From Spongiibacteraceae bacterium (lineage in GTDB: Bacteria; Pseudomonadota; Gammaproteobacteria; Pseudomonadales; Dasaniaceae): 64,000 nt of DNA. Each line of letters opens with the position of its first letter. Position 1 is the stretch's first letter. Shown in pieces: positions 36,200 through 50,666 of the stretch. The translations under genes and the position numbers were made by a program. The DNA is taken from the NCBI GenBank assembly GCA_028280715.1, contig JANQLG010000012.1, positions 62,211-126,210 on the forward strand, read 5' to 3'. The notes beneath the pieces are model-generated. The model worked only from the letters and a program-made list of their open reading frames with translations. It did not search any database and was not told the DNA's origin.

Positions 36200-36868
36200 T
36201 CATATCCAGGTTATACCATCAGGCAAGACATAATCACTGTACTCAACATGCAAGACTCTTCTATATGAAGCATCATTAGACTTACTCGATGCATGCAACA
36301 GATGCGGTCGCATCGCTAAAGCGGAACCGGCTCTTCCTGTAATATGATCTGCCTTATGAGACTGCACATAACGATTAATGCGCTCTTGCGTCATTTTCTC
36401 ATCTTGATGACTACCGGGAATAACCTTTAAACACCCGTTTTCTTTTGTTACCTCATCAAGATGAATTCTAAAGGTCACCATGCGATTAAGTACATCAATG
36501 GTTGGCTGCACATGATGAATACCATCCTTAACACTCCATGGCCCCCAGCCAGTCATTTCAAACTGATCAGATACAGCGATGGTTTTATCCTGATGCCAAG
36601 TTACAAGCCAATTATTGTCAGGGGATTTTATAAAGAGTATTGCTCTAACCAGATTCGGAGTTCCCGACAAATAATAACCCACCTTCTTAAGGACACAATC
36701 CGAATATACTAATTCCTTAACAGACTCGAGTTTCTTTTCAGCATTTCGTAACCCACCCACTCGTCCGGGCTCTATTGCCAATTCATCTAATTCGGATAAA
36801 ACCTTATCTATAGATTTAGCAGTTAGAAAACCATCAATTAATTCAAAACCCACTTCTGAAAAAGACAT
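36200..36868 (-). CDS. Phytanoyl-CoA dioxygenase (PhyH)-family Fe(II)/2OG oxygenase
   Basis: 222 aa with an HxD...H-like arrangement typical of the PhyH family. Assignment by recollection. Confidence 0.5.
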   Translation of the reverse strand: MSFSEVGFELIDGFLTAKSIDKVLSELDELAIEPGRVGGLRNAEKKLESVKELVYSDCVLKKVGYYLSGTPNLVRAILFIKSPDNNWLVTWHQDKTIAVSDQFEMTGWGPWSVKDGIHHVQPTIDVLNRMVTFRIHLDEVTKENGCLKVIPGSHQDEKMTQERINRYVQSHKADHITGRAGSALAMRPHLLHASSKSNDASYRRVLHVEYSDYVLPDGITWI

Positions 36869-37450
36869 CTATTGATACCTATAATGCCCTGTGATCCGAT
36901 AGCTAAACAACATATCCTCCAATTTAGGGCCTGCACCAATATTATGAACAATCATAGGATTACCTGAATCAGGATGGAATTTATCTGTCACAATACCTAT
37001 GTGTGGCAAATTACCCGGCAACATCCAGGTAACAATATCGCCTGCCTTATAGTCAGAAGACTTTGAAGAAACTGGCAGCGCAACACCCTTTCTTGAAAAA
37101 AATGTTTGTAAATTTGGCACTCTGCGATGATCGATATTTTTATCCGGTTTAGATAAGCCCCAGATTCTTTTTGATGGATATTGATCGAAGCTTTCTGCAA
37201 TATCTTCATGAACTAGTTTTTGAAGATCTATATTGAGCGCCCGATAGCTGCGAATCACAACATCTGTACAGACTCCGATATTCTCTGGCACATCACCACC
37301 AGGATAGCCTATGGAATAATAAGCTCCGTTATATTCAATGTCATATTTAGTACGCTCCAAAGCGGCAAGCACAAGACTATCTTCAAAAGTTTCAGCCTGA
37401 GCTTTGGAAGTCACTATCAATAAAAACAATATTAAACGGACTAAACTCAT
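36869..37450 (-). CDS. Secreted DUF1287-like protein
   Basis: Signal peptide (LILFLLIVTSKAQA). Stop/start overlap with the PhyH-like gene. Confidence 0.45.
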   Translation of the reverse strand: MSLVRLILFLLIVTSKAQAETFEDSLVLAALERTKYDIEYNGAYYSIGYPGGDVPENIGVCTDVVIRSYRALNIDLQKLVHEDIAESFDQYPSKRIWGLSKPDKNIDHRRVPNLQTFFSRKGVALPVSSKSSDYKAGDIVTWMLPGNLPHIGIVTDKFHPDSGNPMIVHNIGAGPKLEDMLFSYRITGHYRYQ

Positions 37451-37521: not shown

Positions 37522-37764
37522 CTAATCAATATTGACATCCGTATTTCGGGCCACTATACCCACTGACCTTAATAAAAAGGCAATGCTTTTATAAGGCAGA
37601 TCAATGACCAACTCAATCATGTCATACCATACATCATTACCCCGATGATGCTTGGGCCACAGATAATGAATAAAGAGGTATCCACTAATACAAGCAAAGA
37701 ACACAATCCAGTCAAAGCCATTGACAATCAAATCATAGACTAGATATGAACTGATAAAAAACAA
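37522..37764 (-). CDS. Small membrane protein (80 aa)
   Basis: Two hydrophobic helices. Weak call. Confidence 0.3.
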   Translation of the reverse strand: MFFISSYLVYDLIVNGFDWIVFFACISGYLFIHYLWPKHHRGNDVWYDMIELVIDLPYKSIAFLLRSVGIVARNTDVNID

Positions 37765-37823: not shown

Positions 37824-38063
37824 TTATATACTAAACTCCATTCTTAACTGGTCGACTCTATCTGACAGCTCCCCCTGAAGCTCATCACGGTTTAACCTGC
37901 CAATTATATTTCTCAAAACACGTTTTTCATCTTCATCAACCACACCATCGCGTAATGCAATATCGACGATCTTATTTAGCTCATCGACATCCAGCTTACC
38001 ATCATCAGCAAAGCAGTTAATCGAATGAAAGCTCATTTCTAAATAATCGGTGGTATCACTCAT
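37824..38063 (-). CDS. TerB-like small acidic protein
   Basis: DGKLDVDELNKIVDIALRDGVVDEDEKRVLRNII resembles the TerB/DjlA-N fold pattern. Confidence 0.4.
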   Translation of the reverse strand: MSDTTDYLEMSFHSINCFADDGKLDVDELNKIVDIALRDGVVDEDEKRVLRNIIGRLNRDELQGELSDRVDQLRMEFSI

Positions 38064-38095
38064 TCCTGTATCTCCTTTTTAATCGTTAGATCAGT

Positions 38096-38629
38096 TTATT
38101 CAAAATTAGTAATAAGATATTGCCTTAACTGGTGTTTATTCGGATGTTGATCAAGCCACTCTTTAAAGACATCGAGCTTATCAAAATCATCCGGACTCAA
38201 TTGCTGCCTATAATGCTCTTTTAAATTTTCTTTCTGCTTCTCAATACGAATGTTTCGTTGCCAAGCATCCGTAAAAATGGAAGGCAGTTTAGTGTGATTA
38301 TCCTGCGACTTAAGTAACTGCCACTCACCCTTATCGAGCCATACTTCATCACAATAACTACAGAGTTCAATTTTATTATTAGATTCAGCACCTATTTGAA
38401 ACTTTGTCATCAGGCGGGAACATTTGGGGCATAGTTTGGCTTTACCAACATCTTCAACGACTACGTCGTCTAAGTCTCCTTTATCAACATCAATATTTTG
38501 ATCAATCCAGTAACGGTAATTGATTAATGGTAACAATACACCTTCGCACTTCGGGCAAGCAGCAGCAACCAAACCTTCATCTATAGATACTGGAGCCAAT
38601 CGATAACCCTTACATTGCGTACAATTCAT
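38096..38629 (-). CDS. Zinc-ribbon (TFIIB-type) domain protein
   Basis: Three CxxC pairs (CTQCKG...CPKCEG; CPKCSR...CSYCDE). Confidence 0.5.
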   Translation of the reverse strand: MNCTQCKGYRLAPVSIDEGLVAAACPKCEGVLLPLINYRYWIDQNIDVDKGDLDDVVVEDVGKAKLCPKCSRLMTKFQIGAESNNKIELCSYCDEVWLDKGEWQLLKSQDNHTKLPSIFTDAWQRNIRIEKQKENLKEHYRQQLSPDDFDKLDVFKEWLDQHPNKHQLRQYLITNFE

Positions 38630-38672
38630 AAATAATCCCCTACTCTATTAGTTATTTCCGCACCGATCTAAA

Positions 38673-39515
38673 CTAGGACCGCGGCATACAGCAACGCTTA
38701 TAACGTTTGCCACTACCACAGGGACAGGGTGCTTTTTTTCTGGGCTTGATATCTTCAGCAATGGCCAACACCTCTTGCTGGTAAAATTCTGTTAATGATT
38801 CATACAAATGTGGATGCTTATTTTTTAATAACTGCGGCCTTTCAAAAAAGTACTCCGATGCCACTGCAAAAAACTCTGCACGATTACTAGCACCATAATC
38901 GCGAATATTGCTACGCCTGCTATCAATTTCTTTAATTTTCTTTTCTATCAGATCAAACCAGGGTATCGAAAATCTAAATGCCTGTAGTCTTTCAGGAAAA
39001 CCATCACAGTCGCCATCAGCCATATCCACTAGATGGGCGAATTCATGGATACCAACATTTTTTTTATCCCTACTATTTTCAAACCCTGAATAGAGATGAG
39101 GCCGACTTAGTGCCATTTTGCCAGTCATAGGCCCTGTGCCCACCATACCACTTATGGTTGAATCTGGCTGCCCACACTCAAAGTTTTCATTAAAAACTCC
39201 TGGAAATAGATAGACTGCTCTTAAATTGAAGTAATGCCACTTAGGAAAGCCCCATACAGGAATGATTGCACTGGCAGCCACTAGCAAACAGTCTTCATCA
39301 GACACTTCAATTTGACCTGCCTCTACAGCTGTAGTTTGTAAAAAAAGCAGTGATCGCTGTTGAAAAAGTATTTTATCTTTATCATTTAATGTGCGGTAAA
39401 AAACTACCTTATCATTAAGGAAGTCTGACCAAGACTGTTGCCAAGTTATTACTTGTTTGGATTTATTAAACCCAAACAACTGACGTAACCATTGCTTTAG
39501 CTGACTAAACATCAA
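38673..39515 (-). CDS. MtfA/M90-family zinc peptidase fused to a C-terminal SEC-C motif
   Basis: HEFAHLVD zinc site. Collinear with E. coli MtfA (AEFFAVASEYFFERPQLL vs ECFAVLSEYFFSAPELF; FYQQ). The C-terminus carries CPCGSGKRYKRCC (SEC-C). Confidence 0.75.
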   Translation of the reverse strand: MMFSQLKQWLRQLFGFNKSKQVITWQQSWSDFLNDKVVFYRTLNDKDKILFQQRSLLFLQTTAVEAGQIEVSDEDCLLVAASAIIPVWGFPKWHYFNLRAVYLFPGVFNENFECGQPDSTISGMVGTGPMTGKMALSRPHLYSGFENSRDKKNVGIHEFAHLVDMADGDCDGFPERLQAFRFSIPWFDLIEKKIKEIDSRRSNIRDYGASNRAEFFAVASEYFFERPQLLKNKHPHLYESLTEFYQQEVLAIAEDIKPRKKAPCPCGSGKRYKRCCMPRS

Positions 39516-39545
39516 TCTATTTTTCGTAAATAGTGAAACAAAATA

Positions 39546-40121
39546 TTATAGGCGCCCATAACTTCTCCTTAGCAAAGTGGTCTTGGTGGCAATGGCACCA
39601 CATACCACACCTGCCACCACACCGAATAGATGTGACTCAAAGGACACGCCAGTTTGTATTGGCAAAATCCCATAAATCATTCCGCCATAAAAGAAGATGA
39701 CAAATAGGGCAATGGCAATATTTTTAAAACTGCGATCAAACCAGGCGATAGTAATGGATAAACTCCATAGACCAAATATCCATCCGCTAGCACCAATATG
39801 ACTGGCTTCTCTGCCAAATAACCAGACCAGTATGCCGGTTACTAAGATAATGATCAGACTGCTGATAAGGTAGAAGCTGACCGGCCGCACTAAACAGATA
39901 GCACTAAAAATACTTAAGCCAATGATGTTATTGATTAAGTGCCAATAGCTGCCATGGATAAATGGCGCAGTAATGATGTGGTACCAGTTTTCCGGTGAAC
40001 GAGGAATAATGCCGTATTGATTAAATTGTCCATCCAGTATGATATTGAAAATGTGGATAATACTGATCAACATTACCACACAGGTAATAACTCGTACTCT
40101 TAACCACAAAGAGCTCGTCAT
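39546..40121 (-). CDS. Rhomboid-family intramembrane serine protease
   Basis: 6-TM core with the GASGWIFGL (GxSG) catalytic motif and a downstream His. Start overlaps the stop of the giant AAA gene. Confidence 0.8.
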   Translation of the reverse strand: MTSSLWLRVRVITCVVMLISIIHIFNIILDGQFNQYGIIPRSPENWYHIITAPFIHGSYWHLINNIIGLSIFSAICLVRPVSFYLISSLIIILVTGILVWLFGREASHIGASGWIFGLWSLSITIAWFDRSFKNIAIALFVIFFYGGMIYGILPIQTGVSFESHLFGVVAGVVCGAIATKTTLLRRSYGRL

Positions 40122-43100
40122 TACTCATCTCTCTTAGGTGACTTCTTTGATGACCGTTTTGGAGAGCTTTCTATAACTTGGGCTTCAGCCACGTGGGTTT
40201 CGAGATTACGCAACTGCTCAGAAATATCTTTCATTTTATTATGCGTACGAAGATCAATTTCCAGTTTTTTATCCATACTTCGCACTAAAGGAAAAATACT
40301 ATGCTCAATGGTTTCTGCCAGAACAGTCAGCACTTTATCAATTCCGGGTACAGGTTCATTAACGACTTTTACTGATGGTTTACTCTGCTTAACAACATCT
40401 GCCAGCTTATCGACAACATTCGCTAATTCCTGTGAAGATCTATCACTGCCACTCACTGATGACGTACTTACCTGAGTGGCTACATCTTTTAATTCTTGAA
40501 CACCATTGACCAAATCCACTAACTGGGCAACCACTTTTCCACCCACATCCGCATCATCACCACCCATGGCTTTATTACGCAGAAAATCCTTTTTAATTTG
40601 CTGCCAACGTCGCCCCTCTTCCGCCGTAATATTGCCTCGAAGTTCTACTAATTTGAGCAAATTGTCTTCTGCCCCCGTGGTGAGCAATTGCGCTTCACCC
40701 AAATAATGATCTGCAATCATCTGCATTAATTCTTCTTCATTCATTACTGCAGAAATTTTTTCCGTCATTTTATTCATGTTGCGATAACTGCCCTGTAGTT
40801 TAAAGGCAGGTTCGGTGCGATATTTATCATCCTGCGCTGCTGATGCGATATACTGCTGGTTAATTTTTAGGACGACATCCTGGACAACAAACATTTTTTT
40901 CAGGATTTCGGTGATTTCATTAATTTCTGCACCACTGTATGAATGGCTCAAATCAGTAGTAGCAACATTCGCTCCTTTGGCCATATTAATCAGTTTGTAG
41001 ACATCATCCATTTCACGCACTGCTAGTGGAGCTAATACGGAATTAGAGGTCAGCGCATTCTCGACATAACTCAAAGCAAACTGCTCATCCATGCCACCTA
41101 AAATATCACCCAAGTTATAAATATCGGCACGGTTAGCCAGCATATCCGGTATTTTGAAAGCTTCACCGGATTCGGTATAAGGATTACCGGCCATTACCAC
41201 ACAGAATTTTCGACCGCGCATATCATAGGTTTTGGTGGCACCTTTCCAAACACCTTCAATACGGCGCGTACCATCACACAGCGAAATAAATTTTTGCAGA
41301 AATTCGGGATGGGTATGTTGTATATCGTCTAAATACAACATTACATTGTTACCCATCTCCAGCGCTAAATTTAACTTGCCGAGCTCTTGCCTTGCAGTAG
41401 CATTGGGTGCCTGCTCTGGGTCCAGTGATAAAACATCATGACCTAGGGAAGGGCAATTGATCTTCATAAAGATCAAGCCCAAGCGATTAGCCACATATTC
41501 CATCAAGGTGGTTTTACCGTAGCCTGGCGGAGAGATCATCATCAACAAACCCATGAGGTCGGTACGCTTGTTTTCACCAACAGTGCCCATTTGCTTGGCC
41601 AGATTGTCACCAATTAACGGCAAGTAGGATTCATTGATTAATCGATTACGCACAAAGGAGCTGAGCGGCCTTGGCTTGAATTCTTCTAACCGCAGTTTTT
41701 CTCGCTGTTCTTTTATGGTGTTTTGGCGCAACTCTAAATAATGATGATAGGAAGGCACCACTTCGAAGCGATGTTTTTCCATACGCTGCAAATAAGAATC
41801 CAACGAAAATTGTAGCTGTCGATTTTCTATTGTCGGGTGATCGCCTAATAGCCCTTCTATTGTTAGTTCCAGATCCACCTCGGTTAAACGGCGCTCTAAA
41901 CGTTCATCGGCATTAATGAGAGCCACTGCTTCTGGGATATACCCTTCCATGCCTTCGAGGTTTTTTTCTTTGATTAGTGCATCCAACCAAGCCGTCGATA
42001 AGTTCCAACGCTCTGCTGGCCATCCCATCATTTTATCCAAGGCCATTTGATAACGCCGCCAGGTACTATCATCCATGGAGCGTTTTAATTCCTCGACCAA
42101 ATAGGTGGCATATTTGCTGCCGATAAATTCGACCCTTTCTCGACCCAATTCAGCCACTAAATAATCGGCCGCTCGGCGAATATCCAACTCATTAACAGGA
42201 ATCGGATGCAACTCAACAAAAACAGTCAGCGCCTCGCGCACTTCACTTGCTAATAACTCAATAGCTTCTGAACTAGCAAAAACCGATTGCATTTGGGCGG
42301 CAGACTGTGCTCGTTCTGGCCAAGTGGTGAAAGATAGCGCCTCACGCTCCGCTTCACTGGGTTTGTTTTTGGCTAAATTTTTTATATTGGCCCAGAATAC
42401 TTGTGCCAATCCGCGACTTAATGGATCATAGCGCAACAAGTCAGCACGATCGATAGCAGGTATTAAAGCTTTTAATAACAACACCGCATCGTGATCGTGA
42501 ACACCCTTCTCATATCCCTCTTTATAGCGGGGCGCAGCAAAATCTCTCACTAAGGCGTTAATCAATTCATCATCCAATAAACTCTGCTGTAGTTTATCCG
42601 CCGTCAATTCATTCTGTTGGTGCTTGGCCGCTTCAATGATTAAAGATGCCAGATACTCTGACCGATAGACCTCTGGTGTCTCAGACTCCAGTGACATATC
42701 CCAATAATCACGCATTGCTTGTAAATCGGAGTGAGTAATAGGCTCATAAAAATCGGTACCCGTTAAATGCAAATTTAATGCGCCACTACGAGGGATAATG
42801 GTTAAATCCAGCTCCTGAGTATTAACTGAAAACTTATGGCGAGGCCCTAGTTTTATAATATTACCGCCATCTTCAAAGATATCTGTTTTATCACGCAACG
42901 AACGTAACGCTTGTTCTTTAATTGCTTTAAAGCGAGCCTCAACGTCATCGGCTTTTACCGCGCTATCCAACTCACGCAATTGTTCAATCAGCTCACGAGC
43001 TTTCAGCACTAAAGCGTCGGAGGCAAAATACGTATTTAATTCATCCGCCTCTGTAAATTTAAGCGAGCGTTTTTCTATACTAGCAAGAATACGATCGGCA

Positions 43101-45448
43101 GCATCGGTAATCGATTGCGCTTTTCGCTGACGCTCATCGAGTAATTGCTGTTTATGGCTTTCAAAGGATTCATATATTTCCTCACGCTTATCCATTATAT
43201 CTGCAAGGAATTGATCAAAATTTGTGAACTGGCTTTCCAACTCTTCCAATTGCACTAGCAAGCGGGACAGTTGTTCGTCACATTTTTCCGGCGTTGTTGC
43301 CAAGCCTAATGCGTTGGTAATACTTTGAGAAAATAATTTAAACTGTGCACCGAACTGAGCAACGGCTTCTTCTGAACCGAGATTTTTCTGTTTATGCTTG
43401 GCATTAGCTTTGCTCTGATTCAGTTTTGAATAAACCTGGGAAATGGCATCAATGATACAGGTACGAACAGTGGCATCTTCGACCTTTAAGGTTCCCATTA
43501 ATTCTGATAATAAATCCAAGCCTGATGCTGTTGTTTCAATAGTATCTATTAATGGCTGCAGAGCAGCATTGGTCTCAGCCTGATCGACTTCTTTATTAAG
43601 CGTATCAATTTTTATCAGGTATGGCTCAAGTGCTTTTTCATCGGAGAGGAAAACCACCGTCTGTTCACTGAGAGACTCTTCTGTACGCTGTAGCTCCTGA
43701 TCCAACTCTTCAATGCGAGCAACATCGATATATCGATTGTCTTTAATGGTGGTGAGGTGGCCACGCTGGCGCCGCAGCTTTCCCAATGCATCGACAAACT
43801 CTTCAGCTGTTTCCCAGTTTTCTGAGCGAATAACCTGCAGCAATTCTTCCTGATCACGTTCAGCCTCCAGCATAGTTTTCGCCGATTGCTGGCGAATACT
43901 TTCGACTTTTTCAAATTCATCAATGACCAATTCTGAAGTCGATGAGATCTCTTTAAGAGTCACTGCTATATCTTGGGTTTCGGTATCTTCAACCCAATAG
44001 TGATCATCAAAAACCTTTTTCGCTGCCTTGCTCAGCTCTTCATACAAACGTAGCGACACTGACTGATTGTCAATCCTTCGACAAATACTATATAAGTCGG
44101 ATACACCTCGCACCAACTCAGCATTACCGATCCTGCCAAAAAATGTTTGGCTGGCAGGTGCTTTACTGGCAAATTCTGTGCTCTGGTAGGGCGTTTGCCA
44201 AATTTGCATAGGATGTACACGTATGGGTTCTTCTTCGGCGGAAAAAATAACCAGCTGACCATTTTCTGCCAGAGCATAACCATGGCTATAAATAGGATTT
44301 TGTAATTGTTTTTCGATCAGGTTGTAGGCAAATAATCCAACATTGCCCTCTTCTTGTTCATAGAAAACATAGAGAACATCTTCTCCATTGGGTGAACGAA
44401 TAGATCGCTTAAACTTTAAGCCTGCAACCTCTTCATCAAAGGCCTTGTATTCGCCCGTTTGTAAGTAGTAACCACCGGGAAATATCAATCCATGATCTTC
44501 AGGCAGCTGCACACAGGACTGCCCAATGGCATCAACACGTAATACTTTTTGGATTAAGGTGTTATAGATATAATAACGCCAGCGCTCTTCTTGGTAAGGT
44601 CTGATTTTTAACAGTATTAAGCTACCAACTGCAGCATAAGCTATTTGCGCATCATCCAGTGATTGAGTTTTATCTTCGACTGACTCCCGATAAACCCCTA
44701 ATCCATCTTCAGTATTATTTTCGATTTTGATGGTAAGGTCACCGCCCAAGGTTTCAACGAACACGGTGTCAAGCACATTAATGTGAGGATGACGGCCATG
44801 AATGGCGTCTTCTCGTGTCGTATCAATCCATTCAAAATCGTACTCGGGAGGCAGTTGAATATCGCGCTCGCCACGATTATCGATATAGCGCAATTCCTTT
44901 TCATCAGCCGAAACTGACCAGCGAAAGACGCGAATATCTTCAAGTCGCTCACCAATTTGAAAACCTGCCAACAACTTACCATCTTTAATAGTAAGCTCAA
45001 CCAGCTTGGTATGTTTGTAGTAACGATATAACTCTTCAAAATCACTAACAAAACTACTCTGGGTTAAAAAAGTACCCGCCAGCGATACTGGCTCCATTTC
45101 ATAGTTGCCGTCTGTCTGCTTAATATCAAACAACGCAAACACATCTTCAATTTTGGTTTCTTTTTTAAGACCAATAAAGACGTTGTAACCAAAGAGTAGA
45201 TGATCACCTACCTGGACGATATCTCTGGCAATGCAGTTATTTTCTGTGCGCACTCGAACTCGAGCGAGTACATCCATATCCAAACTACCAAATTCTTCTA
45301 AGCGAGACTCATTAAGCGCCTGTACTTTTTGGCTGAGCGTTTGCCCCTGGCTTACCAGGCGCTTGCGAATAATGTCGTAAGCACCGCCTTCGGCTACTGC
45401 GCTGTCGACTATATCGTTAGCTTCCACAGCCTGCTCTTGCTGTTCCAT
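40121..45448 (-). CDS. Giant (1775 aa) coiled-coil protein with a single C-terminal AAA_5-type (MoxR/dynein/midasin-like) ATPase domain
   Basis: Walker A ISPPGYGKTT. Walker B VMLYLDDIQ. AAA_5-like sensor stretch KFCVVMAGNPYTESGEAFKIPDMLANRADIYNL. The 1200-aa N-terminal region and the C-terminal tail are rich in heptad-like E/K/L/Q segments. Directly downstream of yqiJK-like flotillin genes. Confidence 0.8.
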   Translation of the reverse strand: MEQQEQAVEANDIVDSAVAEGGAYDIIRKRLVSQGQTLSQKVQALNESRLEEFGSLDMDVLARVRVRTENNCIARDIVQVGDHLLFGYNVFIGLKKETKIEDVFALFDIKQTDGNYEMEPVSLAGTFLTQSSFVSDFEELYRYYKHTKLVELTIKDGKLLAGFQIGERLEDIRVFRWSVSADEKELRYIDNRGERDIQLPPEYDFEWIDTTREDAIHGRHPHINVLDTVFVETLGGDLTIKIENNTEDGLGVYRESVEDKTQSLDDAQIAYAAVGSLILLKIRPYQEERWRYYIYNTLIQKVLRVDAIGQSCVQLPEDHGLIFPGGYYLQTGEYKAFDEEVAGLKFKRSIRSPNGEDVLYVFYEQEEGNVGLFAYNLIEKQLQNPIYSHGYALAENGQLVIFSAEEEPIRVHPMQIWQTPYQSTEFASKAPASQTFFGRIGNAELVRGVSDLYSICRRIDNQSVSLRLYEELSKAAKKVFDDHYWVEDTETQDIAVTLKEISSTSELVIDEFEKVESIRQQSAKTMLEAERDQEELLQVIRSENWETAEEFVDALGKLRRQRGHLTTIKDNRYIDVARIEELDQELQRTEESLSEQTVVFLSDEKALEPYLIKIDTLNKEVDQAETNAALQPLIDTIETTASGLDLLSELMGTLKVEDATVRTCIIDAISQVYSKLNQSKANAKHKQKNLGSEEAVAQFGAQFKLFSQSITNALGLATTPEKCDEQLSRLLVQLEELESQFTNFDQFLADIMDKREEIYESFESHKQQLLDERQRKAQSITDAADRILASIEKRSLKFTEADELNTYFASDALVLKARELIEQLRELDSAVKADDVEARFKAIKEQALRSLRDKTDIFEDGGNIIKLGPRHKFSVNTQELDLTIIPRSGALNLHLTGTDFYEPITHSDLQAMRDYWDMSLESETPEVYRSEYLASLIIEAAKHQQNELTADKLQQSLLDDELINALVRDFAAPRYKEGYEKGVHDHDAVLLLKALIPAIDRADLLRYDPLSRGLAQVFWANIKNLAKNKPSEAEREALSFTTWPERAQSAAQMQSVFASSEAIELLASEVREALTVFVELHPIPVNELDIRRAADYLVAELGRERVEFIGSKYATYLVEELKRSMDDSTWRRYQMALDKMMGWPAERWNLSTAWLDALIKEKNLEGMEGYIPEAVALINADERLERRLTEVDLELTIEGLLGDHPTIENRQLQFSLDSYLQRMEKHRFEVVPSYHHYLELRQNTIKEQREKLRLEEFKPRPLSSFVRNRLINESYLPLIGDNLAKQMGTVGENKRTDLMGLLMMISPPGYGKTTLMEYVANRLGLIFMKINCPSLGHDVLSLDPEQAPNATARQELGKLNLALEMGNNVMLYLDDIQHTHPEFLQKFISLCDGTRRIEGVWKGATKTYDMRGRKFCVVMAGNPYTESGEAFKIPDMLANRADIYNLGDILGGMDEQFALSYVENALTSNSVLAPLAVREMDDVYKLINMAKGANVATTDLSHSYSGAEINEITEILKKMFVVQDVVLKINQQYIASAAQDDKYRTEPAFKLQGSYRNMNKMTEKISAVMNEEELMQMIADHYLGEAQLLTTGAEDNLLKLVELRGNITAEEGRRWQQIKKDFLRNKAMGGDDADVGGKVVAQLVDLVNGVQELKDVATQVSTSSVSGSDRSSQELANVVDKLADVVKQSKPSVKVVNEPVPGIDKVLTVLAETIEHSIFPLVRSMDKKLEIDLRTHNKMKDISEQLRNLETHVAEAQVIESSPKRSSKKSPKRDE

Positions 45449-45521
45449 ATCACTTTCCTTAAGCTCAAACAGTGGTTAATAAAAGAGGCAGAGACATTTC
45501 ACCCCTGCTATGAAAACCTGA

Positions 45522-47471
45522 TCAGGCCTTCTCTTGCTCTTCATTAACGGCTGTTGGCTTGCCGTCGATGATGCGGCCAATCAGCGCTGCAATGGTATCG
45601 CTCTTATCAGCCAAACCGTCTACAGCTTTACCAATTGACAAGGACTTGGCGAAATTATTAAAGAAGTGATCTTCTCCACCCACGATATCAATTTTGGCTT
45701 TCTGTAGGGCAACAGCCAGCACTTCAGCATTTTCTCTGGCGATATCCTTACCCGCATCAATTGAAGCCAATGCTTCTTTCAGCGCGGTTTCTAGCCCCAT
45801 GCGATATTCCTCGTGCTCTCGCGCATCAGCACTCATACTGTTCATGGCTTCGAATTTATCTACTAAGCCGTCTGCTTCCGCCTTAAATTGCTCACGAGTC
45901 ACATCGGCACCGGCCATACCTATTTCTTTAGCTGCCTGCGCTTCTGAATTACCTTTGGCGGCTATGACTTCAGCCTCAGCTTTACCCGTTTCACGTTGTG
46001 CGCTAGCTTCCGCATCGCCTTTAGCCTTAACAACAGTAGCTTCTGCCAAACCTTCTTTTTCCTGCGCATCGGCTTTCGCTTCCTGAACTTTGGCATCAGC
46101 CAAACCAGGTGCCGCACGCTCAGCCTGAACACCTTCGGCCAGTTTTTTCTTAGCATCGGCTTCTTTGGCCGCAGCTTCCAGTTCTGCTTGCGCAATGGTC
46201 GTTATTTCAATCGCTTTATGTTTTGCAGAAAGCTCTTCAGCCTCAGCCGCTTTGACTTGCTTAACCTTTTCCTCATCAGCCTGAGCTTCAGCTGCTAACA
46301 CTTGCGTTTGTTTCGCACGGTCAGCTTCAGAGACTTCACGAACTTCCTTAATACGTTCCTCTTCTATAGCAACGGTCTTATCAACGGCAACACGTTCACG
46401 AATAACATTAGCAATTTCTTTTTTCTCAACTTCCACCGCTTTCTCAGCTTCAATTCTTTGCAACTCCACCTCACGTTCTCTGGCAACAATTTCCAAATCA
46501 CGTGCACGTGTTACTTTTTCTTCTTCTATCGCTACAGCACGCTGACGATTTTGCTCTGCTACTTCAATTTCACGCTTTTGATTTTCAGTTTGTACTGATA
46601 GATCTTGTTCAACTTGAATAGTAGTTGCCTCTGCTTTGCGCCGTTCTTCTTCCTGAACTTTCTTGGTTTCTGCTTCTTCACGAGCACGGATAGTGGCAAT
46701 TTCACGCTCTTGTTTCGCTTCTGCATCTGACTGTTGACGCTCTAATTCAAGCATCGCCTCAACTGTTTCGACATTTTTCTTCTTAATGGCTAACTCTTCG
46801 TCGCGCTCAAGAATATTGGTCCGAATATTTTGCTCAGCAGTTAATTCCGTAATTTTCTTAATACCTTCAGCATCAAGGATATTAGAGGGATCAAGTGAAG
46901 CCTTTGGTGTCTGCTCTAAATAATCAATGGCCACATCTTCTAATACATAACCGTTCAGGTCATCACCGATAACCCGAATAATTTTTTCACGGAATTCCTG
47001 GCGATTTTCAAACAACTTAACAAAATCGATTTGTTTACCCACTGTTTTTAAGGCTTCAGAAAACTTTGCATTGAATAACTGATTAACAGCTTCTTTATCC
47101 GACGCTCTTCCCGCCCCAATGGATTTAGCAACCTTTAACACATCATCGGCTGTTTCATTCACTCTTAGATAGAATGCAACGGTTATATCCGCCCTCATAT
47201 TATCCGCACAAATCAAACCATCCTGGCCTCGGCGATCAACCTCAAGGGTGATTAATGAAATTTTCATTAATTCCTTTTTATAAATAATGGGATACACCAA
47301 AGCACCGGTAAAATGGACCTTTGGTTTAGCACTCATATCATTAACAATTAATGCTGTACCCTGCTCAACCTTTACATAGAACGACTTAAATAATGCGGCA
47401 AACCCCATAAGAATGACAAAAAAGATGCCGACTCCCATAATGATGGGCATAAGAACTGATAGATCAGCCAT
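45522..47471 (-). CDS. yqiK: Flotillin-family SPFH protein (YqiK-like)
   Basis: N-terminal TM, SPFH domain, then a long EA-rich flotillin repeat region. Architecture and N-terminus resemble E. coli YqiK. Confidence 0.85.
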   Translation of the reverse strand: MADLSVLMPIIMGVGIFFVILMGFAALFKSFYVKVEQGTALIVNDMSAKPKVHFTGALVYPIIYKKELMKISLITLEVDRRGQDGLICADNMRADITVAFYLRVNETADDVLKVAKSIGAGRASDKEAVNQLFNAKFSEALKTVGKQIDFVKLFENRQEFREKIIRVIGDDLNGYVLEDVAIDYLEQTPKASLDPSNILDAEGIKKITELTAEQNIRTNILERDEELAIKKKNVETVEAMLELERQQSDAEAKQEREIATIRAREEAETKKVQEEERRKAEATTIQVEQDLSVQTENQKREIEVAEQNRQRAVAIEEEKVTRARDLEIVAREREVELQRIEAEKAVEVEKKEIANVIRERVAVDKTVAIEEERIKEVREVSEADRAKQTQVLAAEAQADEEKVKQVKAAEAEELSAKHKAIEITTIAQAELEAAAKEADAKKKLAEGVQAERAAPGLADAKVQEAKADAQEKEGLAEATVVKAKGDAEASAQRETGKAEAEVIAAKGNSEAQAAKEIGMAGADVTREQFKAEADGLVDKFEAMNSMSADAREHEEYRMGLETALKEALASIDAGKDIARENAEVLAVALQKAKIDIVGGEDHFFNNFAKSLSIGKAVDGLADKSDTIAALIGRIIDGKPTAVNEEQEKA

Positions 47472-47518
47472 AGTGGTTACTCCATTTCCTAATAGTTAAA
47501 TAACAATATTTTTAATAG

Positions 47519-48214
47519 TTAGCTTCCAGAAAATTCTTGCTCAGAAACAACGCGGTATACGTTTTCTTCTTTTAAATGCTCCAACAGCACAACGCGATCT
47601 CCTTTTACGAATTCATCATCACCTGTTGCTCTCACTTTGAGAATAAGCCCCGCCCCACCATCTTCTAACATAGCCTCACCAAAACCCTGATCAACTCGAG
47701 AGGTTCTGACAATCGCCGTCTGGCCTAATATATGTTTTACGGTTTGTTGTTGTGCTTTTTTGAATAACGGCCTTAATGGCTTAATAACAACGGCGGTTAT
47801 CATAACCGCTACGTATAGCGACCCGAATAAAATGGGGATTCCGACTAAAAACTCTAAAAAAGCACCTGGAACTAGGCCAAATAGAAAATGAACGGCATAG
47901 TAGGATAACAGCCATCCAAACAAAGATATAAACGAGATAATGACGGTGACGGGAACGCCATGCAGACCAAACCTCAACATCAGCCCGGCCAACACATCGG
48001 GATTTGATAACCCATCTGCATCAACAGCAAATGCACCGTCAGTTTCAGGAAGATCAAAATCGAGAATGTCAATTTCTACAAATCCCAAAACAGCAACCAA
48101 CCAATACAGAACGGTAATAGCTAAGAAAAACGTAAAGAAAACGGTCGGGAATGAAGCAATATTTTGGTAAAACGGATCCATTCCCTCCGTTAAAAAAATT
48201 GCAAACATTCCCAC
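47519..48214 (-). CDS. yqiJ: YqiJ/NfeD-like membrane protein
   Basis: Multi-TM N-terminal half plus a soluble OB-like C-terminus. Positioned upstream of the flotillin as in the E. coli yqiJK operon. Confidence 0.6.
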   Translation of the reverse strand: MGMFAIFLTEGMDPFYQNIASFPTVFFTFFLAITVLYWLVAVLGFVEIDILDFDLPETDGAFAVDADGLSNPDVLAGLMLRFGLHGVPVTVIISFISLFGWLLSYYAVHFLFGLVPGAFLEFLVGIPILFGSLYVAVMITAVVIKPLRPLFKKAQQQTVKHILGQTAIVRTSRVDQGFGEAMLEDGGAGLILKVRATGDDEFVKGDRVVLLEHLKEENVYRVVSEQEFSGS

Positions 48215-48281
48215 CTCCTTTTTTGATTGTGTTTATTCCTAAGACACTGATACTTAACAATACGTATCAGTTAAGAATTAA

Positions 48282-48968
48282 CTATTTTTTGTTTTTCAAT
48301 CTTTCCAAGATATCATCCGCGCTCTTACCACTAGGGGCAATTCCAGCTTCCTCCAGTTTAGTCTGTAAAGAGGTATCAGATGTTTCCTCAGCAAGCTCAC
48401 TGGCTGCAGACATTTGTGCTGACTTCAACGCCTGCTTTTCTTTGATACGCTCCAATGAATCCATTGCAGTACGCATTTTTGAATGTGAGCCGCTATGCCT
48501 TTCAGCCACTGCAGTCTGCGCTCGCTGTACATTTTCTGTCGCTTTTACCGTATCCACCTGCTGCTTAATACGTTTTAAATTGCGCTCTGTTTGCTTAATC
48601 GCCGTGCGAAGATTGTTGGCGCTAGACTCAAAACCGACAGTAGATTCTTTTTCCTGAGCTAATTGGTTTTCAAAATCGGCAATTTTTTCAGCCACTTCGT
48701 GCGCCAAAGCATTATCATCCTTTTCTAATGCTTTAATCGCATAGCCCTCATGCTCTTCTATCTGCTTTTTAAGATTGGCACACTTTTCTTCGGATAATTT
48801 TTGCCTCGCCATAATCTCAGCGAGACTATCTTTAGACTGCTTTAGCTCCTCAGAAGCATCACGAACTTCCTGATCCAGTATCCGCAACGCCTGACTATCA
48901 ACAATTGCTTCACCAGCCTCATTCACACCACCACGTAAAGCGGTCATCATTTTTGCCCAAATATTCAT
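48282..48968 (-). CDS. PspA/IM30 (Vipp1/YjfJ-like) family protein
   Basis: 228 aa, all helical coiled coil, with a PspA-type N-terminus (MNIWAKMMTALRGGVNEAGEAIVDSQALRILDQEVRD). Confidence 0.8.
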   Translation of the reverse strand: MNIWAKMMTALRGGVNEAGEAIVDSQALRILDQEVRDASEELKQSKDSLAEIMARQKLSEEKCANLKKQIEEHEGYAIKALEKDDNALAHEVAEKIADFENQLAQEKESTVGFESSANNLRTAIKQTERNLKRIKQQVDTVKATENVQRAQTAVAERHSGSHSKMRTAMDSLERIKEKQALKSAQMSAASELAEETSDTSLQTKLEEAGIAPSGKSADDILERLKNKK

Positions 48969-48988
48969 TGATCTGCTCCTATCATCAA

Positions 48989-49617
48989 CTAGCTGGCTTC
49001 TACGGAAAGGTTTAAGAATTCGCTATAGGCTTCCGTCGCCTGTATAACGTTACTTGCCAAAACTTCTATCTCGAAAATCACATTCGACAAAATAGATGTT
49101 GAACTCAGCGCACCAAACATGTGGTAGTAATCACCATTTTTTCCAAGACTATCGAGACTAATGGTGGAAAGAGGGAAATACTTATGAGTTCTTAAGATCG
49201 TTTCATTAAAACGATTAACATCAACCACTTCATCAACTGACCACAGTACCGCTTCAACAATAATCTGTTCACCAGATACCGTTAGGAAAACCGGCAAATC
49301 CCCATACTCCCCCATAACAACATGCAGGGCAGGCTCCACACCATCAATCAATTCAATGGTTGCTCGGCCACTAGAAAACAAATCAGACTCCTTTAGCGAC
49401 TCAAACAAGCTACTGGTCGTCCAACTATTGGTATTCTCAGTCATGCTTCTTTCTCCTTTTACTGTATTTAACTCACCAGGCATACGCAGTTGCTTTTCCA
49501 ACTCAGTCAACCTCCCAGCGTTCTCCGGAAGAATCCAAACCTCCTTCTTCACCAACCCCTGCTCACGCAAGCGGCGTCGGTATTCACGCTGATAATATGC
49601 TGATGACTTTGCTTTCA
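48989..49617 (-). CDS. YjfI-like DUF2170 protein with basic N-terminal extension
   Basis: The C-terminal ~130 aa align with E. coli YjfI (EYGDL..., HMFGALSSTSIL, EAYSEF). The MKAKSS ATG at 49617 is preferred over the ORF-track start at 49672. Confidence 0.55.
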
Positions 49618-49632
49618 TGGCCAAACTATAAT

Positions 49633-49671
49633 TTGTTACATGTGATATTGCAAATAATTTTACATGTAACA
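49633..49671. promoter_or_regulatory. Inverted repeat TTGTTACATGT-N17-ACATGTAACAA upstream of the yjfI-pspA-yqiJK operon
   Basis: 11-bp perfect arms, 16-54 nt upstream of the proposed start codon. Candidate operator. Confidence 0.35.
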
Positions 49672-50080
49672 AAAAATAAACTCCTATCTATTTGATTTTA
49701 TTAATATAAATAAAAACCAAAAACACTCACCACCCCAAAAAGATGGAAGTTTTAATCAGCAGAAAGGAGAAAATAGAGAGAAGACCGCAACATTTTCCTA
49801 TGCATTATTATGTTTATTGGTTGCTATTATCTTGAAGCATTGCAGCTTATATCATTACAAAATTATTTTTATAAAGCGACACCCAATAAATCACAGCTTT
49901 ATTACAGGAGCAATAATTAGGAATTGTAATTACTAAACAAAAAAACAGCTCAATCAAAACTGAAGCTTTGCAGTTATAGCCTAGATTAGCCTCTTAAACG
50001 GACGTTTAATAGCACGCATGAGTTCCGCCAAACATGCTTCAGCTGCCTTCAACTCCTTAGAAAACTGAAGACCATTCATT

Positions 50081-50109
50081 AAAAAAGCCACCCGATGGGT
50101 GGCTTTTTT
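50081..50109. terminator. Bidirectional rho-independent terminator
   Basis: AAAAAAGCCACCC-GAT-GGGTGGCTTTTTT. Perfect 8-bp GC-rich stem flanked by A6/T6. Confidence 0.8.
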
Positions 50110-50115
50110 AATGAA

Positions 50116-50191
50116 TGGTCGGGACGGCAGGATTTGAACCTACGACCACCACACCCCCAGTGTGGTGCGCTACCAGACTGCGCTACGCCCC
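50116..50191 (-). tRNA. tRNA-Pro (anticodon GGG)
   Basis: CGGGGCG-UA-GCGC-AGUCUGGUA-GCGC-A-CCACA-CUGGGGG-UGUGG...GGUUCAAAUCC...CGUCCCG-A-CCA. Canonical cloverleaf. Confidence 0.85.
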
Positions 50192-50309
50192 GTGAGAGGG
50201 TGGCCATTATACCGAAACGGACTTGGGTAACAAGCCAATTCTGATGGCTCAAGGCATAAAAAAACCGGGCTGTTTTGCCCGGTTTTTAAAAGGAGAAACT
50301 ATTCGCAAA

Positions 50310-50666
50310 TCAAATGGTTAGTACTTTTAGTACATCTTCCAGTTCATCGATCATTTGGCGAATCATTACTTTGAATTCGCTGTTTTCTTCACCTTCACCC
50401 TCACCTGACATACGCTGACGAGCACCGCCAATGGTGTAGCCCTGATCATACAGTAAGCTGCGAATTTGGCGAATCAGGATCACGTCTTCACGCTGGTAGT
50501 AACGGCGGTTACCACGGCGTTTAACCGGTTTCAGGTTTGGAAACTCCTGCTCCCAGTAGCGCAGTACATGTGGTTTTACTGCACATAATTCACTGACCTC
50601 ACCGATGGTGAAATAGCGCTTGCCCGGAATTACCGGTAATTCATCATTGTGGCTCGGTTCCAGCAT
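50310..50666 (-). CDS. MerR-family transcriptional regulator
   Basis: N-terminal MerR-type HTH ([25 protein letters not shown]). Overlaps the ihfA 3' end. Confidence 0.55.

Follow-up and report, generated by a model that had tools for sequence, protein, structure and literature searches.

A Spongiibacteraceae Version of bacABCDEF, a Conserved and Mechanistically Uncharacterised PspA-Flotillin-AAA+ Envelope-Stress Operon

The nine-gene locus at 37824-49617 of the window (the whole 64,000-nucleotide stretch of Spongiibacteraceae DNA analysed here) is a local version of bacABCDEF, a conserved, mechanistically uncharacterised envelope-stress operon that joins PspA, a flotillin and an AAA+ ATPase. 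Its first five genes correspond to bacA-E of Pseudomonas aeruginosa bacABCDEF (PA3732-PA3727; Mace 2008; Wallart 2024), with the same order and the same families: a DUF2170 regulator, PspA, a short NfeD, a flotillin and a giant DUF3686-AAA+ protein. The giant protein of the window and its P. paraeruginosa ortholog are 58% identical over their full length, and the TTACATGTAA operator pair and promoter layout are likewise common to both systems. The surveyed P. paraeruginosa locus (L043) runs A-B-C-D-E, then a PLD gene, yaeQ and recJ, matching PA3732-PA3725. The systems differ after gene E: in P. aeruginosa-group loci the sixth gene encodes a PLD/HKD protein, whereas the window has no PLD and continues with a rhomboid and an M90-SEC-C peptidase, then with genes for Zn-ribbon and TerB-like proteins. 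Taken as a whole, bac operon identity combined with the remodelling mechanism proposed below is, with high probability, the best explanation of the locus.

The operon is already in the literature, and so is the proposal of ESCRT-like, ATP-dependent membrane remodelling (PMC11237479; PMC10948618). In P. aeruginosa the operon is co-transcribed, deletion of bacA raises BacB-F 6-13-fold, and osmotic shock is an inducer of BacB (PMC10948618). A computational description of the neighbourhood came from Ravi et al. (mSystems 2024), and their class of CesT/Tir-PspA plus band-7/flotillin plus YqiJ/YuaF plus a “novel AAA+ ATPase” is the window’s exact combination; they also reported abbreviated operons without PspA and an occasional PLD (PMC11237479), both of which were reproduced in our surveyed loci. 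The word “rhomboid” is absent from that paper, as are the M90/SEC-C gene, the operator and the affinity of the AAA+ module to MoxR and dynein (PMC11237479). What is new here is the regulation, namely the TTACATGTAA operator pair bracketing the -35 box of a sigma70-like bacA promoter.

ORF calling yielded nine consecutive genes, all on the minus strand (as are all features below) and separated, in order, by 20, 67, 47, 73, -1, 30, 43, and 32 nt. The first-pass annotation had placed nine contiguous genes at these positions, and both their number and their identities held (ORF calls, Pfam, hhalign); the start of the first gene, which it had put at 49617, lies one base away, with the ATG at 49618, and the mechanical ORF extends further, to a TTG at 49672. 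Matches above Pfam cut-offs were obtained for DUF2170, PspA_IM30, Rhomboid, Peptidase_M90 with SEC-C, and Zn_ribbon. The bacA-like gene (48989..49618; DUF2170, E=4.9e-52) is followed by the bacB-like gene, a PspA/IM30 family member of the YjfJ type (48282..48968; PspA_IM30, residues 2-227, E=2.5e-49).

A survey of 80 related loci, in which 70 or 68 loci were testable depending on the gene, showed that linkage of the giant gene extends well beyond this genome. The genes for the NfeD-like protein, the flotillin-like protein and the ATPase (C-D-E) were adjacent in all 70 of 70 testable loci, the DUF2170-PspA pair (A-B) was present in 54 of 70, and a rhomboid in 33 of 68; linkage of the core is conserved in hundreds of species. 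The giant ATPase had been proposed to be tied to both PspA and flotillin; the flotillin/NfeD pair is indeed a constant partner, and PspA is not. The invariant core has three members, namely the short membrane protein of NfeD/YqiJ type, the SPFH (flotillin) protein and a BacE ATPase of ~1750 aa, to which BacA and BacB are added upstream in most genomes. Downstream accessories differ by lineage: in 32 loci the ATPase gene is followed by one of the PLD family, and in Pseudomonas the PLD/HKD protein occurs both with a rhomboid and without one.

The bacE-like gene (40121..45448) encodes a 1775-aa protein that the first-pass annotation had been unable to place in a described family. It carries DUF3686 (residues 38-484, E=1.9e-208), DUF7902 (605-688) and AAA/AAA_5 (about 1300-1425), and is an ortholog of P. 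aeruginosa BacE/PA3728. More than 7100 homologs were found, the top 120 at ≥70% identity over their full length; relatives occur in at least 572 species, and identity across genera is 70-85%. The ~1500 aa of coiled coil originally envisaged were not borne out: two AF2 models with pLDDT of about 86 show segmented helical bundles, a beta-propeller of ~360 aa and, in the middle, a globular helical domain. The propeller (aa 59-418; 44195..45274; model m1b62ee45def7, mean pLDDT 86.6) comes after a long helix at the N-terminus (aa 4-53), and its Foldseek matches were generic (e.g. DCAF1 WD40, paraoxonase, trilobed protease propeller, clathrin terminal domain). The helical-bundle arm that follows (aa 436-856, including DUF7902; 42881..44143) comprises 12 helices of 16-58 residues with short breaks between them and pLDDT mostly of 80-92. 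The small beta domain (aa ~860-905) and the middle domain (aa ~930-1250; together 41699..42871; model m759f83f8373a) have pLDDT >90 over most of their length, and a separate structural match was not identified for either. Toward the C-terminus, a long helix (aa 1703-1759; 40172..40342; residues 853-909 of the C-terminal model, pLDDT ~77-83) has conserved alignment columns, is followed by a disordered Lys/Ser-rich tail, and may serve to bind partners or the membrane.

Between the middle domain and this helix lies the AAA+ module (aa ~1265-1500; 40949..41656), with Walker A SPPGYGKT at 1306-1313, Walker B LYLDD at 1371-1375, a pre-sensor-1 beta-hairpin at 1396-1409, sensor-1 N1422 and R1440. The motifs listed in the first-pass annotation (PPGYGKT, LYLDD, NP...ANRADIY) were all found and vary little or not at all across the family; in sequences down to 30% identity the Walker A, Walker B, sensor-1 and Arg residues show no variation, and on this basis BacE is predicted to be ATPase-competent. 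The module most resembles those of MoxR, dynein and midasin. MoxR-type ATPases are normally paired with a VWA/MIDAS partner. A Pfam search of the operon found no such partner or domain, unlike the MoxR remodellers (CbbQ-CbbO, NorQ-NorD, RavA-ViaA), which counts against the mechanism proposed below, and sequence identity of BacE to these systems and to midasin/dynein is only 10-17%. It further differs from dynein and midasin in having a single AAA+ module per polypeptide, and from all three groups in the beta-propeller at its far N-terminus. As in Vps4/ESCRT-III (CdvC/CdvB), the locus couples an AAA+ ATPase genetically to a member of the ESCRT-III superfamily, PspA; by analogy, a polymer-remodelling role is plausible.

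The bacC-like gene (47519..48214) encodes predicted TM-like segments and a soluble C-terminal domain, with weak homology to E. coli YqiJ (hhalign probability 83.6, E=8e-6); translation probably begins at the nearly invariant Met12 (near 48181). The bacD-like product (45522..47471) aligns with E. coli YqiK over 405 columns at 33% identity (hhalign probability 99.9, E=1.8e-32) and runs from an N-terminal TM segment through an SPFH domain and a long E/A/K-rich helix to a flotillin-type C-terminus. Neither protein matched a Pfam model, even at E≤10, D being too diverged from YqiK for Band_7, and the PDB held no sequence match for the flotillin. Genes A and B belong to the families of E. coli yjfI-yjfJ (DUF2170, PspA_IM30); in E. 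coli, however, yjfI-yjfJ and yqiJ-yqiK are two separate two-gene units, and no giant ATPase lies beside yqiK. BacC and BacD of P. aeruginosa are a short NfeD and PaFlo3, respectively, and deletion of paFlo3 (bacD) lowered biofilm by only about 20% (PMC13086221), a point against the preferred explanation.

Directly after bacE, a minimal six-TM rhomboid intramembrane serine protease (39546..40121; Rhomboid, E=1.3e-18) begins within the giant gene’s stop codon, an overlap that the first-pass annotation had noted; ATG and stop have one base in common. Across 37 homologs the HxxxN and GASG motifs and the TM6 His are retained, and the rhomboid directly follows E in 28 loci, with a 4-nt overlap in 15. 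The M90 (MtfA-like) zinc peptidase with its C-terminal SEC-C (38673..39515; Peptidase_M90 E=1.1e-57, SEC-C E=3.3e-7) retains an intact HEFAH motif and is a lineage-specific accessory, having a homolog at the same position in only one of 68 loci (L002). The Zn-ribbon protein (38096..38629), with two CxxC...CxxC ribbons (two Zn_ribbon_TFIIB stretches) and a helical C-terminus, recurs at varying positions in 18 of 68 loci, its Cys pairs conserved. The last gene (37824..38063) encodes a small acidic helical protein of 79 aa with repeated DG..D/E motifs; the gene itself stands, and its assignment to TerB is sub-threshold (Pfam, 16 bits vs a cut-off of 24.4, E=0.015). TerB-like genes occur in 22 of 68 loci at variable positions, in Pseudomonas often between D and E. 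These last three genes, which had been listed as part of the operon, are not constant members of the system; they are missing from most loci, and therefore may not be functionally integrated.

From gene order and domain logic we infer a mechanism in which BacC and BacD would organise the inner membrane locally, as an SPFH cage or a microdomain, and PspA would polymerise where the membrane is damaged. BacE may assemble as an AAA+ ring whose propeller-tipped helical arms engage the BacC/BacD and PspA assemblies, its ATP hydrolysis serving to remodel or disassemble them or to extract client proteins; the rhomboid, co-translated with BacE, and the M90 peptidase could target clients in or close to the membrane within that microdomain. 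The function of BacE in this scheme is likewise one that we infer, the giant ATPase of the published operon being still uncharacterised.

SPFH proteins are established scaffolds of membrane proteases, as in HflK/C-FtsH, stomatin-STOPP and mitochondrial SLP2-PARL-YME1L, and the locus could accordingly be read as an SPFH-organised proteolytic hub, in which a flotillin cage corrals rhomboid and M90 peptidase, BacE is the feeding unfoldase or extractor, and PspA is only a co-regulated membrane patch. The intact HEFAH motif fits such a hub, as does translational coupling of the rhomboid to BacE in many genera, with its catalytic Ser and His kept. We nevertheless regard it as unlikely: the rhomboid is missing in half of the loci and the M90 peptidase in nearly all, P. 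aeruginosa-group loci have PLD instead, and no MoxR-type AAA+ protein is known to thread substrates into proteases.

Giant ATPases with PLD nucleases or proteases are also a common defence architecture, and downstream effector-like genes differ between lineages here, as might be expected if the ATPase sensed infection and an effector (rhomboid, PLD or M90) then killed or arrested the cell. PA3728-PA3732 are, moreover, up-regulated in all phage-infected P. aeruginosa samples (PMC12041424), a response that, like osmotic induction of BacB, also speaks for the stress link of the bac operon. A dedicated anti-phage system, the defence role raised at first, is even so improbable, given that PADLOC models were unmatched beyond coiled-coil or SEC-C noise, that the locus sits in no island but among housekeeping genes (pheT, ihfA and tRNA-Pro; recJ in Pseudomonas) with no GC anomaly relative to its flanks, and that its stable gene order and cross-genus ATPase identity are unlike those of fast-evolving, patchy defence genes. 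We give very little credence to BacE as a DNA repair ATPase, with incidentally coupled membrane proteins and a Nuc-like nuclease as its PLD/HKD neighbour, a reading suggested by the Pfam text for DUF3686 (“ATPase involved in DNA repair”), the NCBI name “DNA repair ATPase”, RuvB and MCM among the Foldseek matches, the PLD-family gene after the ATPase, and recJ nearby in Pseudomonas.

Within the preferred bac operon reading, regulation would start from BacA, which exceeds the NCBIfam “biofilm formation regulator BacA” equivalog cut-off (319 vs 300 bits). A basic, putatively DNA-binding N-terminal domain of ~45 aa, conserved in 17 diverse sequences, precedes its DUF2170/CesT-like chaperone-fold domain. 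PDB 8q8o aligns with residues 64-203 only; for the N-terminal domain no PDB relative was found, and matches were weak (UrfF, E=0.006; MazE-like, E=0.1). Upstream of bacA, a sigma70-like promoter (49625..49653, consensus scan) comprises a -35 box TTGCAA (49653-49648) and a -10 box TATAGT (49630-49625). The self-complementary operator 1, TTACATGTAA (49660..49669), lies immediately 5' of the -35 box, and operator 2, TCACATGTAA (49645-49636), within the spacer. Counting sites with one mismatch or fewer across the 80 related loci, 94 of 118 fall no more than 150 nt 5' of gene A; they represent 50 of 53 loci and keep fixed offsets. The layout is kept in ~50 loci from several families. Conservation of the pair across genera suggests that BacA directly represses its own operon: the basic domain would bind the two operators, and envelope stress would lift repression, possibly through a partner switch between the chaperone-fold domain and PspA. 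The -10 box ends 6 nt 5' of the bacA ATG, before which there is no Shine-Dalgarno sequence, and the bacA mRNA is therefore probably leaderless. A consensus scan found no sigma54 consensus upstream of gene A; the published proposal for the bacA promoter is sigma54 (PMC10948618), which disagrees with the sigma70 leaderless layout proposed here.

Nine consecutive genes occupy the minus strand of the window from 49618 to 37824 (ORF listing), with intergenic gaps, in transcription order, of 20, 67, 47, 73, −1, 30, 43, and 32 nt. Gene A encodes a DUF2170 protein (CesT-like) that scored 319 bits, against a cut-off of 300, with the NCBIfam equivalog model “biofilm formation regulator BacA,” and is followed after 20 nt by gene B, a PspA_IM30 member by Pfam; this DUF2170–PspA-family succession is that of the bac operon. 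Gene C encodes a polytopic membrane protein with predicted transmembrane (TM) segments and gene D (45522–47471, minus strand) a protein of 649 aa bearing a TM segment at its N-terminus; neither has a Pfam match. Together they constitute a short YqiJ/NfeD-like membrane protein followed by a flotillin with TM, SPFH, and coiled-coil regions. Gene E (40121–45448, minus strand) encodes a giant protein of 1775 aa with DUF3686 (E = 1.9e-208), DUF7902, and AAA/AAA_5 matches in Pfam. The remaining four genes encode a rhomboid protein (Pfam), a Peptidase_M90 protein with an SEC-C motif (Pfam), a double Zn-ribbon protein (Pfam/NCBIfam), and a 79-aa protein whose Pfam TerB match falls under threshold. The first-pass annotation had proposed these gene identities from sequence, and they held against Pfam, NCBIfam, and hhalign comparison with Escherichia coli YqiK and YqiJ; its observations were confirmed, whereas its interpretation of the unit was only partly supported. 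Because the gaps are short, one gene pair overlaps by 1 nt, and no strong internal terminator is present, the genes are predicted to be co-transcribed as one operon.

Two minor features accompany the unit. The 73 nt that separate the flotillin gene from the gene for the giant ATPase contain a terminator-like hairpin (45488–45508, minus strand; 9-bp stem plus T-rich tail, a consensus match only). This hairpin may act as an attenuator, reducing expression of the ATPase in comparison with the scaffold proteins. Downstream of the TerB-like gene, at a distance of 59 nt, is an ORF of 80 aa (37522–37764, minus strand) with a single TM-like segment; a homolog occupies the same position in Maricurvus (L001:16170–16454), and the ORF may represent a tenth member of the unit.

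The closest characterized counterpart is in Pseudomonas aeruginosa, where PA3732–PA3727 form the bacABCDEF operon; these genes were co-transcribed by RT-PCR, and in a bacA deletion mutant BacB, BacC, BacD, PA14_16190 (BacE), and PA14_16200 (BacF) increased 6–13-fold (PMC10948618). PA3728–PA3732 were also up-regulated in all phage-infected samples of a 2025 study (PMC12041424). In the P. paraeruginosa locus L043, the gene order is a 1746-aa ortholog of the giant, a PLD-domain protein of 235 aa, yaeQ, and recJ, and on this basis we assign the giant as BacE and consider the PLD protein to be probably BacF of P. aeruginosa. The window unit differs in having no PLD gene in the place of bacF. It belongs to the same neighborhood class as that described by Ravi et al. 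(PMC11237479), in which PLD is sometimes present and abbreviated forms lack PspA. The system in the window is a new member of this operon family, distinguished by a lineage-specific set of accessory genes; since the family is already in the literature, the finding as originally stated has low novelty. The locus stands in a housekeeping context, not in an island.

Relatives of BacE were found by genome scan in at least 572 species, and the best 80 loci were analyzed by phmmer searches of the window proteins against all of their ORFs. These loci span Cellvibrionaceae, many Pseudomonas lineages, Xenorhabdus, Pragia, Gilliamella, Lysobacter, Arenicella, Kangiella, a Zetaproteobacterium, and Lampropedia. 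The suggested linkage of the giant gene to pspA, flotillin, and rhomboid genes extends across them to different degrees: YqiJ-like and flotillin-like genes lie directly upstream of the giant in all 70 loci with enough flank, the DUF2170–PspA pair occurs in 54 of 70, and a rhomboid gene, at any position, in 33 of 68. In 28 the rhomboid gene comes directly after the giant, and in 15 its start and the giant's stop overlap by 4 nt. Zn-ribbon (18/68) and TerB-like genes (22/68, in Pseudomonas often between D and E) are less frequent, and the M90 peptidase gene was found in a single locus of 68 (L002, from a close relative). On these counts across the best 80 loci, the invariant unit is NfeD–flotillin–ATPase; PspA and BacA are often added upstream, and the genes downstream are accessories that vary between lineages. 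What is new here is that the invariant partner of the ATPase is the flotillin/NfeD pair and not PspA, and that a translationally coupled rhomboid often forms a fourth component.

Among the accessory proteins, the window rhomboid scored 68 bits in Pfam (cut-off 22.6) and has the catalytic Ser and His; HxxxN, GASG, and the TM6 His are kept in an alignment of 37 sequences, with GASG and His at least 90% conserved. The M90 protein (195.9 bits in Pfam) contains the HExxH zinc site as HEFAH, and its score with the MtfA equivalog model was 54.8 against a cut-off of 400, so that it is a member of the M90 family and not an MtfA ortholog. The TerB-like match is weak (16 bits vs. a cut-off of 24.4, E = 0.015, 29 residues covered), and comparison of this protein with the N-terminus of the PLD protein gave only two matches, with E of about 0.01; the idea that it is a free-standing copy of that N-terminus was dropped. 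Clustering of unassigned neighbor ORFs revealed two further downstream genes in other loci. A PLD/HKD protein of ∼230 aa (PLDc_2, E = 1e-29) is encoded after either the giant ATPase or the rhomboid in 32 loci (L030:15246–15935, L043:15243–15950, and 30 others), and a TelA-like protein of 367 aa occurs in eight, e.g., in Pseudoxanthomonas (L069). Neither a PLD nor a TelA-like gene was found elsewhere in the window.

The flotillin-like and YqiJ-like proteins had no Pfam match even at E ≤ 10, including to the Band_7/Flot profiles in the case of the flotillin-like protein, and PDB searches with a 16-sequence flotillin-like profile and with a YqiJ-like profile returned nothing. In hhalign comparisons with the reference proteins from E. 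coli (NC_000913), the gene D family aligned with YqiK at a probability of 99.9 (E = 1.8e-32), and gene C gave a weak alignment with YqiJ (probability 83.6, E = 8e-6). Because homology to YqiK is clear despite the missing Pfam and PDB matches, the gene D product is assigned as a diverged SPFH member, and domain-based surveys may under-count its subfamily. A 2026 survey equated PaFlo3 with BacD and a short NfeD with BacC, and reported that deletion of paFlo3 lowers biofilm formation only marginally (PMC13086221). The mechanically called start of the YqiJ-like gene is a GTG (start region 48181–48214); Met12 is nearly invariant in an alignment of 16 homologs, and the true start is therefore probably ∼11 codons downstream, near 48181.

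The giant protein, which the first-pass annotation could not match to any described family, belongs to one that is described and uncharacterized: it is a DUF3686-family protein with an N-terminal beta-propeller and helical region, orthologous to BacE/PA3728. To our knowledge BacE has never been studied directly, and a literature search found no mention of DUF3686. More than 7100 homologs were detected, the best 120 of which align along their full length at 70–85% identity and are annotated either as “DNA repair ATPase” or as “AAA family ATPase.” Identity is 70–85% across different genera and about 55–60% to Pseudomonas, Lysobacter, and Lampropedia, with 58% over residues 1–1749 to the P. paraeruginosa ortholog, which has a PA3732–PA3725-like gene order; the host of the window lies near Teredinibacter and other Cellvibrionaceae. 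Such sequence conservation is unusually strong for a protein of 1775 aa. Hundreds of alignment columns beyond the AAA+ core are invariant, which indicates constraint over the whole length. A search of 1.84 billion cluster representatives with the N-terminal 500 aa matched 750 clusters, including Vibrio and Flammeovirga (Bacteroidota), whose full-length members are 1600–1900 aa with the domain at the N-terminus. The ATPase motifs quoted earlier for the giant are present and invariant across the family, and the AAA+ module is, judged by sequence, catalytically intact. Against the PDB, the giant gave only marginal AAA matches by sequence (E > 0.04) and a 25-sequence profile gave none, so no solved structure is detectable by sequence.

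BacE was mapped through two AlphaFold2 models built on 46-sequence alignments (29–83% identity). In the first (residues 1–880, mean pLDDT 86.6), a long helix (4–53) precedes a beta-rich propeller (59–418) and twelve helices of 16–58 residues arranged in segmented bundles (436–856). In the second (residues 851–1775, mean pLDDT 86.2, pTM 0.72), a small beta domain and a globular helical domain (∼930–1250) lead into the AAA+ module, which is of alpha/beta-plus-lid form and has a pre-sensor-1 beta-hairpin at 1396–1409; more helices, a conserved long C-terminal helix (1703–1759), and a disordered Lys-rich tail follow. A propeller, segmented bundles, and a globular helical domain thus take the place of the ∼1500 aa of coiled coil initially envisaged. 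Foldseek matches of the N-terminal model to the PDB were generic propellers and long-helix proteins with low TM scores, and the dynein, axonemal, and clathrin matches among them are not interpretable as homology. The C-terminal model matched RuvB, CbbQ, NorQ, MCM, Lon, and CLPB (E about 1e-5). With an AAA_5-type core, the pre-sensor-1 hairpin, and nearest structural similarity to the MoxR/dynein/midasin group, the original MoxR/midasin-type call was right. A VWA/MIDAS partner is typical for MoxR proteins; the window unit encodes none, and Pfam found no VWA/MIDAS domain in any of the ten proteins scanned. BacE was also considered as a Vps4-type classical AAA; the classical-clade fold with an N-terminal MIT domain was not found, and BacE is not a Vps4 homolog. 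The confident domain map and the placement of BacE in the MoxR/dynein/midasin group are new.

A 2025 review of bacterial ESCRT-III-like systems stated that bacteria appear to lack a Vps4-like ATPase and that control of PspA polymerization is an open question (PMC7619361), and Ravi et al. proposed ATP-dependent membrane remodeling by analogy with Snf7–Vps4 (PMC11237479). BacE, at ∼1750 aa, is highly conserved and, in the best 80 loci, always beside the NfeD–flotillin pair and usually beside PspA, which makes it an obvious candidate for a Vps4-like role. Starting from the gene content, the conserved synteny, and the BacE domain map with its intact AAA+ module, we infer a mechanism in which a membrane cage or microdomain would be built from the SPFH/NfeD pair, PspA would polymerize on stressed membrane, and BacE rings, acting through propeller-tipped arms, would remodel or disassemble both assemblies, or extract clients. 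The translationally coupled rhomboid and, in the window, the M90 peptidase would process membrane-proximal clients. A more specific reading, tentative and in our view rather doubtful, makes BacE the missing ATP-driven remodeler of bacterial membrane scaffolds: a MoxR/dynein-type AAA+ ring whose propeller-tipped helical arms would grip flotillin (SPFH) cages and ESCRT-III-like PspA polymers and take them apart or reshape them, functionally analogous to Vps4 but from another AAA+ clade. In this reading the translationally coupled rhomboid would clip the clients set free.

Compared with the general mechanism, other readings are less well supported. A role for BacE as a DNA repair ATPase has the annotation name as its only basis. 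The first-pass annotation had raised the possibility of a defense machine, and a dedicated defense system is contradicted by the housekeeping context, by the very high conservation, and by a negative PADLOC 2.0 scan, in which the ten proteins gave no meaningful match, only coiled-coil noise (PspA) and SEC-C-tail noise (M90). An SPFH-organized proteolytic hub is possible, but half of the loci have no rhomboid, so such a hub is not general. Returning to scaffold remodeling by BacE, both the candidate and the idea are already in the literature; the window therefore adds a member rather than a discovery, and the useful additions of the analysis are the BacE domain map and a model of the operator and promoter.

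Two copies of a self-complementary, operator-like site, TTACATGTAA, lie at 49669 and 49645 (minus strand), just before the ATG of gene A at 49618. The two sites bracket a −35-like TTGCAA, and a −10-like TATAGT ends 6 nt before the ATG, which is preceded by no Shine-Dalgarno sequence; the whole arrangement spans 49625–49669 (minus strand). Of 118 such sites with at most one mismatch in the 1.82 Mb of the 80 loci, 94 fall within 150 nt upstream of gene A, and in 50 of 53 loci, drawn from several families, they stand at fixed offsets. The common layout (operator, TTGAC(a), operator, TAnnnT, 6–7 nt, ATG) recurs in Cellvibrionaceae, Pseudomonas (including the P. aeruginosa group), Lysobacter, and Lampropedia. 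Because the −10 element ends 6–7 nt before the ATG, the bacA mRNA is probably leaderless. For P. aeruginosa bacA, a sigma54 promoter was proposed, with no mention of an operator, palindrome, or DNA binding (PMC10948618); the layout in the window disagrees, being sigma70-like and probably leaderless. No match to the sigma54 consensus (TGGCAC-N5-TTGCW, ≤2 mismatches) occurs between the tRNA-Pro terminator and gene A, and a sigma54 promoter for this gene was rejected; in the whole window, matches are at chance level (39 observed vs. 38.6 expected).

A basic N-terminal domain of ∼45 aa (KSSAHYQREYRxRLREQGLVKKEVWILPE) is common to all BacA orthologs; in the window protein it lies within residues 1–63 (49430–49618). 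The BacA structure 8q8o aligns only with the equivalent of residues 64–203 and lacks this domain, which is a candidate DNA-binding domain. Profile searches found no PDB relative for it, the only matches being UrfF (E = 0.006) and, in Pfam, a MazE-like family (E = 0.1). BacA would directly repress its own promoter, which is of sigma70 type and probably leaderless, a reading that fits the derepression in the bacA deletion mutant. The conserved operator/promoter architecture and the N-terminal domain missing from the crystal structure are new, and together they provide a concrete, testable model of regulation, distinct from the sigma54 promoter proposed earlier. An AT-rich spacer of about 450 nt separates gene A from a tRNA-Pro(GGG) gene and its strong, 20-bp-stem terminator upstream (50072–50192, minus strand). 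Further upstream are a MerR-family gene (50310–50666), ihfA, and pheT, and DUF1287 and PhyH genes lie downstream of the unit (36200–37450).
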